A stretch of DNA of 64,000 nt from positions 22,337 through 86,336 of the forward strand of contig JAJPKO010000043.1 of the NCBI GenBank assembly GCA_021323655.1, given 5' to 3'. Positions 43,836 through 62,418 of the stretch are shown one piece after another; within the stretch, counting starts at the first letter, position 1, and each line of letters begins with the position of its first letter. The DNA comes from Acidobacteriaceae bacterium (GTDB lineage: Bacteria > Acidobacteriota > Terriglobia > Terriglobales > Acidobacteriaceae). The translations under genes and the position numbers were made by a program. Below the pieces are notes generated by a model. That model was not told where the DNA came from and did not search any database. It saw only the letters and a list, made by a program, of their open reading frames with translations.

Positions 43836-43915
43836 GGTGACGGAGTTCACCCTTAACCGCTGTCCCCAATAGGCCGGACAGATGATGACTCCTGACAGGG
43901 AATACTGTCACGGAG
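43836..43915 (+). promoter_or_regulatory. Fluoride riboswitch (crcB motif) A plus expression-platform hairpin
   Basis: The sequence is GGTGACGGAGTTCACC CTTAACCG CTGTCC-CCAATAGGCC-GGACAG ATGATGACTCCTGAC. It has P1 GGUGA/UCACC, a loop GGAGU that can pseudoknot with the ACUCC tail, and a P3 hairpin. The tail CTCCTGACAG can instead pair with CTGTCACGGAG, which contains the GGAG SD. Confidence 0.8.
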
Positions 43916-43917
43916 CC

Positions 43918-44433
43918 ATGTCCCGGCAGCAATCCCTGAACAAAACTGAAGGAGAGTTTGGATCCATGAATCCATGGGCCCTCTCAGCTTTGTGGGTGGG
44001 ATTTTCGCTGATTGCAACACTGCTTGCGATCTGGTCGAAGCTGTTGACTGTGCTCTCGGTAATCATCGTGGGCGCGGCTACCGAGACAGCCATCCGCGTC
44101 ATACATGGAAGCGTTAGCCTGCGCAGCAACAGGCAGTGGATCGCCCTGCTGGTCTACGCCTGGGACATCGCACTAGCCTTCTTCGCCCGCACGGAACTCG
44201 AACCCCTTCTTTTCAAATCTGAGCGAAACGCGGCGCTCCCTTCCAAGTCGGGAAGATTCTTCGGGCACAAAGTCAGCACTGCGATTCGTCACCTCATTCG
44301 TCGGAGCACAAGTGTCTTCACAACGATCGGCCCTCGTGCCGGGAAAGCGGAATCATTATGTCTGAAATTGCAAAACTACAAGCACTTGAAATCCTGGACT
44401 CGCGCGGCAACCCCACACTCGCTGTCACGGTGA
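43918..44433 (+). CDS. Cation:proton antiporter-like N-terminal fragment (probable remnant), first ORF after riboswitch A
   Basis: [23 protein letters not shown]...TELEP resembles the first helices of CPA-type Na+/H+ exchangers. The rest is non-membrane-like and runs 76 nt into eno. Confidence 0.3.
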
Positions 44434-59212: not shown

Positions 59213-59218
59213 TTGACT

Positions 59219-60877
59219 GTGCCAACGAACCCCGCCAATCGCCCAGCCCCGGAGCCCCGGCTACAAAGCAACCCTCCAGCAATCACTCCAGGCAACGAGA
59301 CAAACCCTGATGCTTCAGCCTTTCACAGCATCCTGACCGAGTGTCAGGATGTCGACGGGCAGTCTGAGATCCAGGAAGCTCCTGGATTCTTTAGCGATCT
59401 CAATCTCGATCAGATCGTCGGCACGATCACGGCCGGACGAGAACAGTACGATTTGAAGCCACTCTTCTATACGCCCCTAAAGACCGTTGAGGCTGTTCAC
59501 TATCGGCAGGACGTCTTCCGCGATCTTTCAGGGAATTTCCGCCTATTGGAACTGGTTCGTTCATTTGCGGAAAGAATGCGGGAGATGCGAACTCTTCTCG
59601 CGATTTCCGAAAAGCGATACTACAAACGTCAAAAGCAAGCCGCCTTTCTCGATGCCGTTGAAACATACTGCAATACTGTCACGGTGCTTAAGGAAGGCCT
59701 GCTCTCCACAGGTCCTGCGTCGCGAGGATTCCAGGCGCTTCGCGGTTTTCTTGTCCGCTACACCGGCTCAGAAGAGTTCACCAGCCTGAAGAAGGAAACG
59801 GAGCGGGTCAGAGCAGAGCTCGCGAAGGTCCGATATTCGCTTCACATCCATCAGGGGCGTGTCACGGTCAACCGCACTGACACGGAAGGCGACTACAGCG
59901 AGGAAGTTCTCAGAACCTTCGAAAAATTCCGGCAGACGGATCCGCGAAGCCATCGCTTCAAGGTTCCCCTATCGATTGAGATGAATCACATTGAGGCACG
60001 AATCCTCGATCTGGTCTCCGCATTGCATTCGGAAGCATTTGCCCGCCTAGACGCGTATTGCGACCGATACCGCAACTACTGTCATCAGCTGATTGCCAGA
60101 TTCGATCGCGAAGTACAGTTCTACATCGCCTATCTCGAACAACTGGAACAGTTGAAGAAGGCAGCGCTTCCGTTCTGTTTCCCAGGCGTGAGCAGCCATT
60201 CGAAGGAAGTGCAGGCGCTCGACACCTACGATGTTGCGCTTGCGAATCAGCTGATTCATGCCCGGAAAGATGTGGTTAAAAACAGCTTTTGCTTGAACGA
60301 ACCCGAGCGCACTTTAGTCGTCTCTGGGCCCAATCAAGGCGGGAAGACCACGTTTGCGCGCACCTTTGGACAGCTACATTATCTGGCGGCTCTGGGCTGT
60401 CCGGTGGCGGGCATCTCAACAAAATTATTCCTATTTGATCGACTCTTTACGCACTTCGAGAAGGAAGAGGACATTCAAAATCTACGCGGGAAGCTTGAAG
60501 ACGAGCTGATCCGCATCAACGAGATTCTTGAGAATGCGACAGCGAACAGCATCCTCATAACGAACGAGAGCTTTTTGTCGACGACGATGAACGACGCTCT
60601 CTTTCTCAGCCGCGAGGTGATGAAGCGGATCGCCGCTCTCGATATGCTTTGCGTGACTGTTACGTTTCTCGATGAATTGGCTTCATTCAACGAAACGACT
60701 GTAAGCATGGTCAGCACGGTGAATCCCACGGATCCGCAGCAGCGGACATTCAAAGTGATCCGGAGACCGGCTGATGGCCTTGCTTACGCAGCAGCGATCG
60801 CCGAGAAATATCACCTGACCTACGAGGCAGTGAAGACGCGGGTAGGTGCGAGGGAAAGCGAGGTGAACGAGTCATGA
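59219..60877 (+). CDS. MutS-related ATPase (domain V type, no mismatch-binding domain recognised) 1
   Basis: Walker A is VVSGPNQGGKTTFARTFGQL. The Walker B-like segment is SILITNESFLSTT. The GTG at 59219 lies 6 nt after AGGAG; the track start TTG at 59213 has no spacing. Confidence 0.7.
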   Translation: MPTNPANRPAPEPRLQSNPPAITPGNETNPDASAFHSILTECQDVDGQSEIQEAPGFFSDLNLDQIVGTITAGREQYDLKPLFYTPLKTVEAVHYRQDVFRDLSGNFRLLELVRSFAERMREMRTLLAISEKRYYKRQKQAAFLDAVETYCNTVTVLKEGLLSTGPASRGFQALRGFLVRYTGSEEFTSLKKETERVRAELAKVRYSLHIHQGRVTVNRTDTEGDYSEEVLRTFEKFRQTDPRSHRFKVPLSIEMNHIEARILDLVSALHSEAFARLDAYCDRYRNYCHQLIARFDREVQFYIAYLEQLEQLKKAALPFCFPGVSSHSKEVQALDTYDVALANQLIHARKDVVKNSFCLNEPERTLVVSGPNQGGKTTFARTFGQLHYLAALGCPVAGISTKLFLFDRLFTHFEKEEDIQNLRGKLEDELIRINEILENATANSILITNESFLSTTMNDALFLSREVMKRIAALDMLCVTVTFLDELASFNETTVSMVSTVNPTDPQQRTFKVIRRPADGLAYAAAIAEKYHLTYEAVKTRVGARESEVNES

Positions 60878-62418
60878 AAGTCTTCCTCATGTTTCGGGAC
60901 CACGACTTTGTCCTCGACGAGGGTATCCCGGAAAATGCGCAAGAAACGATTCAGGATCTTGAGTTGAACACCCTGTTTCGGGCCGTGGCTGGCGGCGATG
61001 ATTTTCTACTGCAAGTTGCGAAAGGTGCCGTGCTCGCAAGCCTCAAGAATCGAGAATCCATCCTTTATCGGCAGGAGGTGCTTGCGGACTGCCTGGCATT
61101 CCCCGACATTGCGCGAGATCTCTACGCTCTCGCAGTTGATGCCATTGAACGCGAGAGCCGGATCTGGGGTTGGTTCGCGCTTTCTTCTCCGGACTCGCTG
61201 CTGCACCGATCGGTCGAAGCTTTGGGACTTCTTATTGGGTTGCTTGAGCGCCTAAGAAAACTGGCTGATGAACACAGTTCCAAATTCCGCTCAGAAGGCT
61301 TCCGGTGGTTCTTTGGCATGGCCACTCAGGAACTGTCCGATAGCTACCTGCAAGCTGTGAAGGACCACCTGGTAAGACTGGAGTTCCGCGGCGGCGTTCA
61401 AATGAGCGCCGATCTGGGGCGCGATTTTCGAGGCTCCAATTACACTCTCCACAGCCTTGAGGTAGAGGCACTGGGTTGGTTCGAACAGGTCCGGGAATGG
61501 GTCGGCCAGATCACGCGCAAAGATGACTCGGGGCTGTCATTCGACGTTGACCCACGCGACGAGGCGGGCTTCCGTGCATTGGAAGCGCTCAGAACGGAGG
61601 GGATCGCCAATGTCGCTATTGCGTTGGCGCAATCGAGCGATCACATTCTTAGTTTCTTTAAGGCGCTGCGATTGGAATTGGGATTCTATATAGGATGCCT
61701 AAATCTGCGGGACAAACTCGCCGCGAAACAGGAGCCCTTCTGCATTCCAAATCCACTGCCAGAGAAAGACGAAGTACTTCGGTGCCAGGGAATCTACGAC
61801 GTTTGCTTGACCCTGAACACAGCCGAGCGGGTGGTCGGCAACGACGTCTGCGGGGAGAAAAAAGCCTTGGTTGTGATTACGGGCGCCAACCGCGGCGGCA
61901 AGTCGACACTCTTACGGAGCTTTGGCGTGGCTCAGCTGATGATGCAGTGCGGCATGTTCGTACCGGCGCGCGAATTCCATGCGAATGTCTGCCAGGGCAT
62001 CTTTACCCATTTCAAGCGAGAAGAAGATGCCAGCATGAAAAGTGGCAAACTGGACGAAGAACTCAGCAGAATGAATGCCATTGTAGAGCGAATTACACCT
62101 CGTTGCGTGCTTCTTCTAAATGAGTCGTTTGCTTCAACCAATGAGCGGGAGGGGTCGGAAATCGCCAGACAGATCGTTCGCGCTCTCCTTGAAAAACAGG
62201 TAAAGATTCTCTATGTCACGCACATGTTCGATCTGGCGGATGGGTTTCATCGGCAGCACATGGAGTCTGCACTCTTTCTTCGTGCCGAGCGCCTCGAGGA
62301 CGGCACGCGTACTTTCCGCCTTTTGGAAGGGGTGCCTGAGAGAACCAGCTATGGGGAAGATCTGTTCCGGCGCATTTTTCAGGCTGAACCTGAGAGCCTT
62401 CAGCCCACCGCGCAGTGA
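60874..62418 (+). CDS. MutS-related ATPase (domain V type) 2
   Basis: Walker A is VVITGANRGGKSTLLRSFGVAQLMMQCGMFVPA. The Walker B-like segment is VLLLNESFASTNEREG. Its ATG overlaps the upstream stop. Confidence 0.7.
   Translation: MKVFLMFRDHDFVLDEGIPENAQETIQDLELNTLFRAVAGGDDFLLQVAKGAVLASLKNRESILYRQEVLADCLAFPDIARDLYALAVDAIERESRIWGWFALSSPDSLLHRSVEALGLLIGLLERLRKLADEHSSKFRSEGFRWFFGMATQELSDSYLQAVKDHLVRLEFRGGVQMSADLGRDFRGSNYTLHSLEVEALGWFEQVREWVGQITRKDDSGLSFDVDPRDEAGFRALEALRTEGIANVAIALAQSSDHILSFFKALRLELGFYIGCLNLRDKLAAKQEPFCIPNPLPEKDEVLRCQGIYDVCLTLNTAERVVGNDVCGEKKALVVITGANRGGKSTLLRSFGVAQLMMQCGMFVPAREFHANVCQGIFTHFKREEDASMKSGKLDEELSRMNAIVERITPRCVLLLNESFASTNEREGSEIARQIVRALLEKQVKILYVTHMFDLADGFHRQHMESALFLRAERLEDGTRTFRLLEGVPERTSYGEDLFRRIFQAEPESLQPTAQ

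Follow-up and report, generated by a model that had tools for sequence, protein, structure and literature searches.

Four fluoride riboswitch aptamers in a probable fluoride-resistance island of Acidobacteriaceae

We analysed a 64-kb stretch of Acidobacteriaceae DNA (the window) and found in it four fluoride (crcB-motif) riboswitch aptamers, two with a canonical and two with a divergent tertiary pair. On the basis of sequence comparison, the region from 43.8 to 63.7 kb is very probably an Acidobacteriaceae (Terracidiphilus-like) fluoride-resistance island, with three transcription units (units 1, 3 and 4, beginning with aptamers 1, 3 and 4) under four fluoride riboswitches that would act as translational ON switches. 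The switches lie upstream of gene classes connected with fluoride toxicity, namely eno, crcB, DUF190, a Hyf-like operon and a MutS-like pair, and one of them directly precedes a gene for a dynamin-like GTPase (dyn).

Aptamers, promoters and expression platforms

The whole window was scanned at the curated Rfam thresholds, and 201-nt stretches around the two weaker sites were scanned permissively. Positions of tertiary pairs are given in Thermotoga petrophila numbering.

Aptamer 1, 43836-43897 (Rfam span 43827-43901), + strand: canonical A6•U38, C7, long P3 (GCUGUCC/GGACAG); RF01734 39.1 bits
Aptamer 2, 45675-45721 (Rfam span 45667-45728), + strand: divergent U6•A38, in the 83-nt eno-dyn spacer; RF01734 16.4 bits
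Aptamer 3, 58915-58977, - strand: canonical A6•U38; RF01734 53.8 bits
Aptamer 4, 59141-59195 (Rfam span 59133-59201), + strand: divergent U6•A38; RF01734 20.7 bits

Aptamers 3 and 1 were the sole two RF01734 matches in the window above the gathering score of 34 bits. In the permissive scans, RF01734 was the best family at aptamer 2 (E 0.021) and at aptamer 4 (E 8.4e-4); rescaled to one family over 64 kb, these E-values become approximately 2e-3 and 6e-5, respectively. A covariance model built on 59 leaders of dyn genes (the aptamer-2 type), designated R1, recovered all four sites, with 70.7 bits for aptamer 2, 43.9 bits for aptamer 4, and 25.1 and 19.0 bits for the remaining two. R1 found nothing else credible across the window, its two extra matches being the antisense strand of an anti-Shine-Dalgarno palindrome and a match to P1 alone. 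A first-pass annotation had placed fluoride aptamers at these four coordinates, and in this respect it was borne out; its expectation that all four would exceed the gathering score held for aptamers 1 and 3 and failed for aptamers 2 and 4.

In all four aptamers, P1 closes an 8-9 nt loop of the form N6-N7-GGA(G/A), which is followed by a variable P3 and a tail N38-N39-AUGA(C/U)UCCU. The 4-bp core of P1 is identical throughout (GGUG/CAC(C/U)), whereas P3 differs with pairing kept, being GCUC/GGGC, GCC/GGC and CCCCUC/GAGGGG in aptamers 2, 3 and 4, respectively. The covariation that had been proposed for both helices among the four copies thus stands for P3; for P1 it is absent at this level and appears once relatives are added. 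As read from the sequence, loop positions 8-13 can pair with tail positions 42-47 in a pseudoknot in each case: aptamers 2 and 4 form six Watson-Crick pairs (GGAGUC/GACUCC), aptamer 1 forms five pairs and a U•G (GGAGUU/GACUCC), and aptamer 3 needs one bulged C (GGAA(C)UC/GAUUCC). The residues A40, U41, G42 and U48 are likewise present in all four, and the pair 6•38 reads A•U, U•A, A•U and U•A from aptamer 1 to aptamer 4. Aptamers 2 and 4 diverge further from the consensus, with GAACA or GAUAC instead of UAACC at the J1/3 joiner and CCUCG or CCUGC instead of CCUAC in the tail, and aptamer 2 has A instead of G at position 39.

Compared with the crcB aptamer of T. petrophila (PDB code 4ENC; RF01734), the window aptamers have the same P1 and N6-N7-GGxGU loop, a variable P3, the same 6-bp pseudoknot with a tail AUGAxxCC, the A40•U48 and 6•38 pairs and the same position in a 5' untranslated region. 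They differ from it in the U6•A38 pair and the changes at J1/3, G39 and the 3' CCUAC of aptamers 2 and 4, in C7 of aptamer 1 and in the bulged C of aptamer 3. By architecture, covariance-model matches and conservation among relatives, all four sites are real aptamers of the fluoride riboswitch class.

The promoters and the predicted structures that cover the Shine-Dalgarno sequence (SD) are as follows; the minimum free energy is abbreviated MFE.

Promoter of unit 1, 43798-43826, + strand: sigma-70-like TTGACT-17-TAAACT, 9/12 matches, ending 9 nt before aptamer 1
Probable promoter of unit 3, 58990-59018, - strand: TTGACA-17-CAATAT, read from the sequence
Promoter of unit 4, 59101-59130, + strand: TTGACA-18-GATACT, 10/12 matches, best in the region, divergent from unit 3
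Expression platform 1, 43886-43968, + strand: CUCCU pairs with GGAG at 43912-43915 (centroid) or with the AGGAG SD at 43950-43954 before AUG 43966 (MFE)
OFF hairpin 2, 45712-45752, + strand: AUGACUCCUC with GAGGAGUCAU, covering SD and AUG 45746; z = -3.0
OFF hairpin 3, 58946-58899, - strand: P3 3' strand and tail with UAGGAGUCGCGCCGUGAA, hiding AGGAG and GUG 58903; z = -3.4
OFF hairpin 4, 59188-59215, + strand: ACUCCUGC with GCAGGAGU, hiding the SD; z = -3.45

The promoters of aptamers 1 and 4, both sigma-70-like, end 6-9 nt before the aptamer and are the top two sites of the 19-kb region. Given that the promoter scan found no promoter-like site within the 83-nt eno-dyn spacer, aptamer 2 acts inside the unit-1 mRNA. 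MFE folding excludes pseudoknots, and the predicted folds therefore show the OFF state. In each leader these folds contain a helix that covers the SD, in agreement with the earlier proposal that the tail can pair alternatively with an AGGAG-type SD; pairing of the tail with the loop and with the SD is mutually exclusive. In leader 2 the helix is predicted to run on through the P3 3' strand, and its hairpin has a folding energy of about -20 kcal/mol in all of approximately 58 distinct leaders of dyn orthologues, with the tail serving as the anti-SD strand in each. The likely start behind aptamer 4 is GUG 59219, six bases past the SD. The anti-SD hairpins of aptamers 2 and 4 are unusually strong, with 9-10 bp. 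All four leaders look like translational ON switches.

In the mechanism that we propose, the pseudoknot strand ACUCCU would pair with the SD in the absence of fluoride, and in two cases with the start codon as well; binding of Mg2+ and F- would let the pseudoknot capture the tail strand and so free the ribosome-binding site. Unit 1 would run from the promoter at 43798 through aptamer 1 and a truncated exchanger open reading frame (ORF) to eno, and on the same mRNA aptamer 2 would gate dyn, followed by crcB, an ORF for a Cys-rich protein, two DUF190 genes and probably a universal stress protein (USP) gene. On the - strand, unit 3 would lead from aptamer 3 to a 43-aa leader ORF and then to a six-gene, NiFe-less hydrogenase-4-like membrane complex. 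In unit 4, aptamer 4 would control two MutS-like ATPases and perhaps a transporter of the MFS type. Translation of the leader ORFs would relay the signal to the genes behind them (eno and the Hyf-like operon), through coupling or because it suppresses Rho. The eriC/CLC-F leader of Pseudomonas syringae, reportedly described by Baker et al. in 2012 as a translationally acting fluoride ON switch, is alike in its ON logic and in the freeing of the ribosome-binding site by the ligand; in the window, by contrast, two switches gate short leader ORFs and one lies inside an operon (between eno and dyn).

It is also possible, although we think it doubtful, that the switches act mainly on transcription, through Rho-dependent or intrinsic termination, rather than on translation initiation. 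Aptamers 1 and 3 gate a remnant ORF and a short ORF rather than functional genes, so that the signal needs some polarity mechanism to arrive at eno and the Hyf-like genes; just past its aptamer, leader 3 is rich in C and poor in G, and many of the fluoride riboswitches characterised so far are transcriptional (PMC11077080). However, the terminator scan detected no terminator-like stem with a U-tract after any of the four aptamers, the alternative helix covers the SD, the start codon or both in all four leaders, and an effect of Rho would be secondary to a translational event and thus no alternative to it. Control at translation initiation accordingly remains the mode of action that we prefer for all four switches.

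Conservation among relatives and the 6•38 pair

Homologues of the 701-aa dynamin-like protein carry Terracidiphilus or Terriglobia annotation. Alignment of these homologues gave a set of 80 loci from species-representative genomes, all Acidobacteriaceae and 1.36 Mb in total, in which genes downstream of aptamers were assigned by tblastn with the window proteins, plus Pfam. An aptamer-2-type leader lies within 70 nt upstream of the dyn orthologue in 64 of the 80 loci. Its consensus, GGUGUUGGAGU(C/U)CACC ... GCUC..GGGC-A-(A/G)AUGACUCCUC, then CUUGGAGGAGUCAUG, is kept nearly base for base while the dyn proteins are only 51-87% identical. An aptamer-4-type leader (GGGUGUUGGAGUCCACUCU...GGGGAAGAUGACUCCU) is found upstream of mutSa, the first gene of the MutS-like pair, in 7/10 loci and also in metagenome loci, and a canonical aptamer lies upstream of hyfC in 17 of 19 homologues. 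Leaders of the aptamer-1 type precede eno or an Na+/H+ exchanger gene in many loci, where position 7 can be any base. Altogether, R1 found approximately 190 aptamers in the 80 loci, with a maximum of six within one 22-kb locus. Multi-riboswitch islands are thus common in this family, and the presentation of the window locus as exceptional did not hold.

Two aptamers of the eno-leader type (L005:9499-9608 and L016:9624-9735) contain a GC-rich insertion of about 45 nt inside P3, and the anti-SD loop of the dyn leader in L005 carries an insertion of like composition (GGGGTCACCGGCGACTGG...GTCGCTGGAGTGG). These insertions could be a small repeat element that enters riboswitch hairpin loops.

Covariation was examined in a model-based alignment of 140 distinct aptamer sequences, with shuffled alignments and slid partners as controls. 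The whole structure outscored every shuffle and every slid control. Cells of P1 and P3 were paired in 93% of cases, compared with 38-58% when partners were slid. In relatives, U•G, C-G and U-A occur at P3 pair 3, and P1 pair 4 is U-A in 55, C-G in 44 and U•G in 15 of 116 distinct U6•A38 aptamers. Pseudoknot cells were 96% paired; given that most of these pairs are invariant, this value reflects compatibility rather than covariation. Positions 40 and 48 are A and U in 139 of the 140 distinct relatives.

Among the R1 matches in genome loci, positions 6 and 38 are A/U 115 times, U/A 74 times and U/G twice, with no case of A/A or U/U; the 140-sequence alignment contains 69 UA, 67 AU and 2 UG, together with 2 misaligned rows. 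With metagenome loci pooled in (about 330 relatives), the counts are 115+15 AU, 74+116 UA, about 26 GC and 2 UG, again with no A/A or U/U. The 116 UA cases are not independent evidence, because they were chosen by the search pattern, and all such counts are of sequences and not of independent evolutionary changes, of which there were possibly only two or three at 6•38. Exchange of A•U for G•C is seen in trans Watson-Crick pairs elsewhere, for example in the 15-48 Levitt pair of tRNA. In the T. petrophila aptamer, A6 and U38 form a reverse Watson-Crick pair, A40 and U48 form the reverse Hoogsteen 'linchpin', and the Mg2+/F- pocket is made by the phosphates of A6, U7, G8, U41 and G42 (bioRxiv 10.1101/2022.05.19.492696). 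A 2025 study of covariation in fluoride riboswitches does not mention the tertiary pair.

Metagenome contigs were searched blind to gene content with the pattern GTTGGAGTYC-N(18-48)-ARATGACTCCT, which matched at least 118 contig stretches. Among the U6•A38 matches listed, the downstream gene was dynamin-like in at least 60, MutS-like in at least 14, crcB in at least 13, DUF190 in at least 4 and the N-terminus of an Na+/H+ exchanger in at least 2; at least 10 were cut by the contig end, and at least 22 preceded other genes, which include pyrophosphatase, pyruvate phosphate dikinase (PPDK), four CMAS-type methyltransferases, PP2C, an M20 peptidase and an AAA ATPase. Chance accounts for several of the matches listed, in which a P1 helix is missing. 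A dynamin-like gene therefore follows 60 of the 115 uncut matches listed, a few of the 115 being such chance matches. Many of the metagenome U6•A38 aptamers have the P1 GGCG/CGCC, and their dynamin-like genes are annotated as Bryobacteraceae. Given that the metagenome type also precedes crcB, DUF190, pyrophosphatase, PPDK, CMAS and PP2C genes, a general rule that U6•A38 is specific for genes of nucleoside triphosphatases (NTPases) was ruled out.

A third state, G6•C38, was present in metagenome loci (GGCG-GUGGAGUU-CGCC ... GGC-C-AAUGACUCC), upstream of genes for Na_H_Exchanger, DUF190, a second dynamin family, an AAA ATPase and a PhoU_div protein. Aptamers of this sub-type have the loop GUGGAGUY and the tail C-[A/G]AU[G/A]ACUCC, and about one third of them reach the Rfam gathering score; they occur at L082, L087, L091, L099, L115, L117, L118, L125, L131, L134, L158, L161, L165, L176 and L187. 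An ATPase of about 250-280 aa (AAA_16/AAA_22) recurs behind all three aptamer sub-types in related loci, and an ORF that resembles a metallophosphoesterase by motif alone (MKIAIIADIHANF...) also follows a fluoride aptamer there; the loci with one or the other are L034, L047 (about 7684-8300 and 8120-8400), L039, L051, L059, L112, L125 and L187.

At 12 loci of the Bryobacteraceae type, 13 of 15 U6•A38 aptamers and 5 G6•C38 aptamers reached the gathering score, whereas at six Acidobacteriaceae loci none of the six dyn-type and none of the three mutS-type leaders did so and 18 canonical aptamers did. The U6•A38 swap was thus ruled out as the cause of the Rfam miss at aptamers 2 and 4, and their low scores stem from the additional divergence. 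As the curated threshold misses this conserved set (0/9 dyn- and mutS-type leaders), automated annotation under-counts the fluoride regulon, here in one of the most abundant soil phyla.

Because U6•A38 precedes crcB and genes for classic fluoride-sensitive enzymes, we argue that all three 6•38 states sense fluoride. An unlikely alternative is that aptamers 2 and 4 represent a subclass that is either tuned, responding at another fluoride threshold in a two-tier system, or re-specified for a ligand linked to NTPases. Such a subclass would fit the coexistence of A6•U38 and U6•A38 aptamers within single islands, the occurrence of U6•A38 in the 80 Acidobacteriaceae loci solely upstream of dynamin-like and MutS-like NTPase genes, the position of the swapped pair next to the ligand pocket, the unusually strong anti-SD hairpins and the scores below the Rfam gathering score. 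A different ligand is nevertheless improbable because the pocket consists of backbone phosphates, and positions 7, 8, 41, 42, 40 and 48 are unchanged. The U6•A38 pair is also found before crcB, DUF190, pyrophosphatase and PPDK genes in other Acidobacteriota, where most such aptamers pass Rfam, and aptamer 2 shares its mRNA with crcB. Fluoride is most likely the ligand of aptamers 2 and 4, as judged from these comparisons.

We regard as highly improbable the idea that aptamers 2 and 4 are decayed relics or chance look-alikes, with their genes constitutively SD-hidden or independent of fluoride: it would account for the sub-threshold Rfam scores and the deviations at J1/3, G39 and A49/C50, but not for leaders conserved nearly base for base at 64/80 loci despite the protein divergence, compensatory changes in P1 and P3, joint change of positions 6 and 38, six Watson-Crick pseudoknot pairs or a tail that is the exact anti-SD strand in every orthologue, and a -20 kcal/mol hairpin that stayed closed over SD and AUG would shut off a gene that is highly conserved.

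Several points weigh against our interpretation of the region as a fluoride-resistance island under translational control. Aptamers 2 and 4 lie 13-18 bits under the curated Rfam threshold. Leader 1 has a weak z of -1.7 and two alternative OFF structures, and the -10 element of the unit-3 promoter matches at 3/6 positions, under the scanner threshold. We infer the control of eno and the Hyf-like genes through leader ORFs, and the C/G ratio of about 2 over the 78 nt after aptamer 3 is modest. Finally, the U6•A38 type may derive from just one or two evolutionary events, and sequence counts inflate the support.

Genes of the three units

The genes of the island and their assignments are listed below.

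Remnant leader ORF (orf155), 43966-44433, + strand: residues 5-111 of an Na+/H+ exchanger of about 400 aa; BLASTP E 2e-10; overlaps the eno start by 76 nt
Enolase (eno), 44358-45662, + strand: Pfam Enolase_N and Enolase_C, E 7e-115
Dynamin-like GTPase (dyn), 701 aa, 45746-47851, + strand: Pfam Dynamin_N, 82.5 bits vs a cut-off of 27
CrcB (Fluc) fluoride channel, 47864-48241, + strand: Pfam CRCB, E 4.5e-27
Cys-rich ORF, 188 aa, 48238-48804, + strand: weak DUF6062 match, E 0.006, below cut-off; CPFC, CDVC, CNFH and CIPH motifs
Tandem-domain DUF190 protein, 48814-49581, + strand: Pfam DUF190, E 1e-60
Single-domain DUF190 protein, 49578-49940, + strand: Pfam DUF190, E 8e-35
USP, 50176-50637, + strand: Pfam Usp
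Terminator-like site after USP, 50805-50822: terminator scan
Six-gene Hyf-like operon, 51062-58703, - strand: Pfam and NCBIfam
Basic leader ORF, 43 aa, 58772-58903, - strand: GUG start 7 nt after AGGAG, directly behind aptamer 3
MutS-like pair (mutSa and mutSb, 552 and 514 aa), 59219-62418, + strand: Pfam MutS_V
MFS transporter, 62478-63689, + strand: Pfam MFS_1, 60 nt past mutSb

The genes assigned to the switches in the first-pass annotation (eno, crcB, DUF190, the Hyf-like operon and the MutS-like pair) were supported by Pfam, except that USP has no aptamer of its own. A look-alike sequence before USP (GUGGAGUC...GCUCCUAC) was rejected as a fifth aptamer, as neither Rfam (49900-50260) nor R1 gave a match. 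USP probably belongs to unit 1, and its control by a riboswitch would depend on read-through. NCBIfam returned no family above cut-off for dyn, the MutS-like proteins, the Cys-rich ORF or the tandem DUF190 protein.

The ORF behind aptamer 1 corresponds to the 5' part of an exchanger gene whose full-length homologue matches Pfam Na_H_Exchanger. In ten related loci the exchanger gene is full length and is followed by USP and eno; it is truncated in the window and in L013, and the equivalent ORFs in the closest relatives of the window are not conserved. The ORF is thus what remains of this gene, and it now functions as a leader ORF. A candidate role of orf155 as a real small membrane protein was ruled out, given that it is the 5' quarter of the exchanger gene and that the ORFs of relatives are not conserved. 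A deletion has joined the leader and the stub of the exchanger gene to eno.

Aptamer 2 had been thought to control a MutS-like gene; the next gene instead encodes a GTPase of the dynamin family, according to Pfam, PDB and Foldseek. The best PDB sequence matches of dyn are IniA, the dynamin-like protein (DLP) of Campylobacter jejuni and BDLP. Its motifs GRVSSGKS, DTPG and SKAD are invariant in 24 homologues, and G1, G3 and G4 are intact. We obtained an AlphaFold (AF2) model with a mean pLDDT (predicted local distance difference test) of 75.9, for which the top Foldseek matches were IniA, BDLP, DLP1/2 and mitofusin/Fzo1, with a probability of 1.0 to IniA and BDLP over 558-688 aligned columns. 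IniA of M. smegmatis (PDB codes 6j72 and 6j73), BDLP of Nostoc (2j68 and 2j69) and C. jejuni DLP1/2 (5owv) have in common with dyn the Dynamin_N GTPase domain and a helical neck and trunk, at 14-18% identity in the fold alignment, whereas dyn adds a family-specific, strongly conserved helical NH2-terminal domain of about 200 aa. Sequence and predicted structure thus identify dyn as a bacterial dynamin-like protein. The literature that we searched yielded no link between a fluoride riboswitch and a dynamin, although an earlier mention in Baker et al. 2012 or Ren et al. 2012 is possible.

The order eno-dyn-crcB-CysORF-DUF190-DUF190 is conserved: of the 80 loci, 64 have crcB, 67 have the tandem DUF190 gene and 46 have the Cys-rich ORF, which lies between crcB and DUF190. 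The Cys-rich ORF is a conserved, uncharacterised member of the fluoride operon.

In unit 3, L035 and L041 conserve the 43-aa ORF in reading frame, in length and at both ends (V[KR]..V ... LIAVRRC*). Loci with the other type of Hyf paralogue have a different short basic ORF (M[KR][KR]RRC...) at the equivalent position. The 43-aa ORF may encode a riboswitch-gated leader peptide.

The operon that follows encodes a HyfC/NuoH-like and a 4L-like protein, two antiporter-like proteins, a fused 30k+49k large subunit and a Fer4+NuoB-like small subunit. The best PDB match of the large subunit is HycE (7z0s_E, E 1.7e-52). However, the large subunit has no CxxC at all: the HycE motif RvCGiC is replaced by RfAAtS, the COOH-terminus reads LSATECDR, and three of the four NiFe-ligand cysteines are replaced. 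The loss of cysteines is common to both paralogue types (19 homologues or loci). No family for formate dehydrogenase (FdhF) or HycB was detected among the six operon genes by Pfam or NCBIfam. The small subunit (53207-53962, - strand) has a ferredoxin-like NH2-terminal extension (CxxCxxC...CP) and the sequence VPGNPPPP, at a position where we would expect the PGCPP cysteine of NuoB/HycG-type small subunits. Asn takes the place of the fourth Cys in the proximal iron-sulfur motif, and the proximal cluster of this subunit may thus also be altered.

Given that the NiFe-ligand cysteines are lost, the Hyf-like complex is not a hydrogenase but a hydrogenase relative. It has the same subunit set as E. 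coli formate hydrogenlyase and hydrogenase-4 (HyfB/D/F-like, HyfC, fused 30k+49k and NuoB-like), but it differs from formate hydrogenlyase in the lost NiFe ligands and in the lack of formate dehydrogenase and HycB, and fits instead the description of Ehr complexes, which are relatives of group-4 hydrogenases without NiFe ligands (PMC4758237). The designation as Hyf-like is appropriate for the gene set and does not extend to a formate hydrogenlyase.

PDB matches of the MutS-like proteins in unit 4 are limited to about residues 302-540, and NCBIfam models for MutS1 and MutS2 score 51-76 bits against cut-offs of 400-642. Pfam detected only MutS_V in the pair, with neither the mismatch-binding, connector or clamp domains of MutS1 nor the Smr domain of MutS2. 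Judged by domain content, the pair carries only the domain-V ATPase of MutS. The MFS transporter gene may belong to the same unit: L027 and L059 also have it beside the mutS pair, and L045 and L075 have it at another place in their islands.

Relation to known fluoride systems and neighbouring genes

The fluoride response is known to include exporters, enolase, pyrophosphatase, Na+/H+ antiporters and 'formate hydrogen lyase' under riboswitches, and Streptomyces cattleya and Methylobacterium DM4 have riboswitch-rich genomes (PMC11139923). By analogy with that work, the genes of the island would serve in fluoride export, in compensation for enolase and pyrophosphatase, and in pH homeostasis. As in those two genomes, a layered response would be controlled by riboswitches at several loci; here, in contrast, four switches lie within 15.4 kb of one island (up to six per 22 kb in relatives), Acidobacteriaceae have this island as a conserved feature, and dynamin-like and MutS-like NTPases are prominent. 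The first paper on the crcB motif (PMC2864571) does report the links to mutS and formate hydrogen lyase that the first-pass annotation had mentioned. Published work (PMC2864571 and PMC11139923) already covers the riboswitch class, its ON logic and the main cargo links, and the window adds further members and unreported cargo but no new mechanism. Our literature search found no description of these Acidobacteria islands.

More tentatively, and with a low probability in our estimation, Terriglobia (Acidobacteriaceae and Bryobacteraceae) might run a layered fluoride response on the three 6•38 sub-types (A•U, U•A and G•C), which would differ in threshold or kinetics, with the NTPases as true effectors. 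If so, the U•A sub-type in Acidobacteriaceae would be reserved for the IniA-like dynamin and the MutS-domain-V pair. As a matter of speculation, the NTPases could help to repair membranes or provide additional copies of enzymes that are poisoned by metal-fluoride transition-state analogues, and the NiFe-less Hyf-like complex could be a redox-independent cation or proton pump that counters acidification driven by hydrogen fluoride, whose entry into cells matters most in acidic soils. Although the mechanism is unsurprising, the locus is useful as a test bed, and the three-state covariation at 6•38 provides a natural test of that tertiary contact. The island is also present in a cultured strain, Acidicapsa dinghuensis 4GSKX (L026), at 791714-813792 of NZ_JAGSYH010000004.1.

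Two other groups of genes were noted elsewhere in the window. At 36321-38425 and 40604-41575 (both - strand), a fusion of Prok-E2_C and ThiF (E1-like) domains occurs with an adjacent Metal_CEHH gene and a nearby TIR-domain protein; these genes look like a prokaryotic ubiquitin-like conjugation cassette or a defence island that is unrelated to fluoride. At 27936-29611 (- strand), Cu-oxidase_3 and Cu-oxidase_2 lie in two overlapping ORFs, which may represent a single multicopper oxidase that was broken in two by a frameshift or by an error of sequencing.

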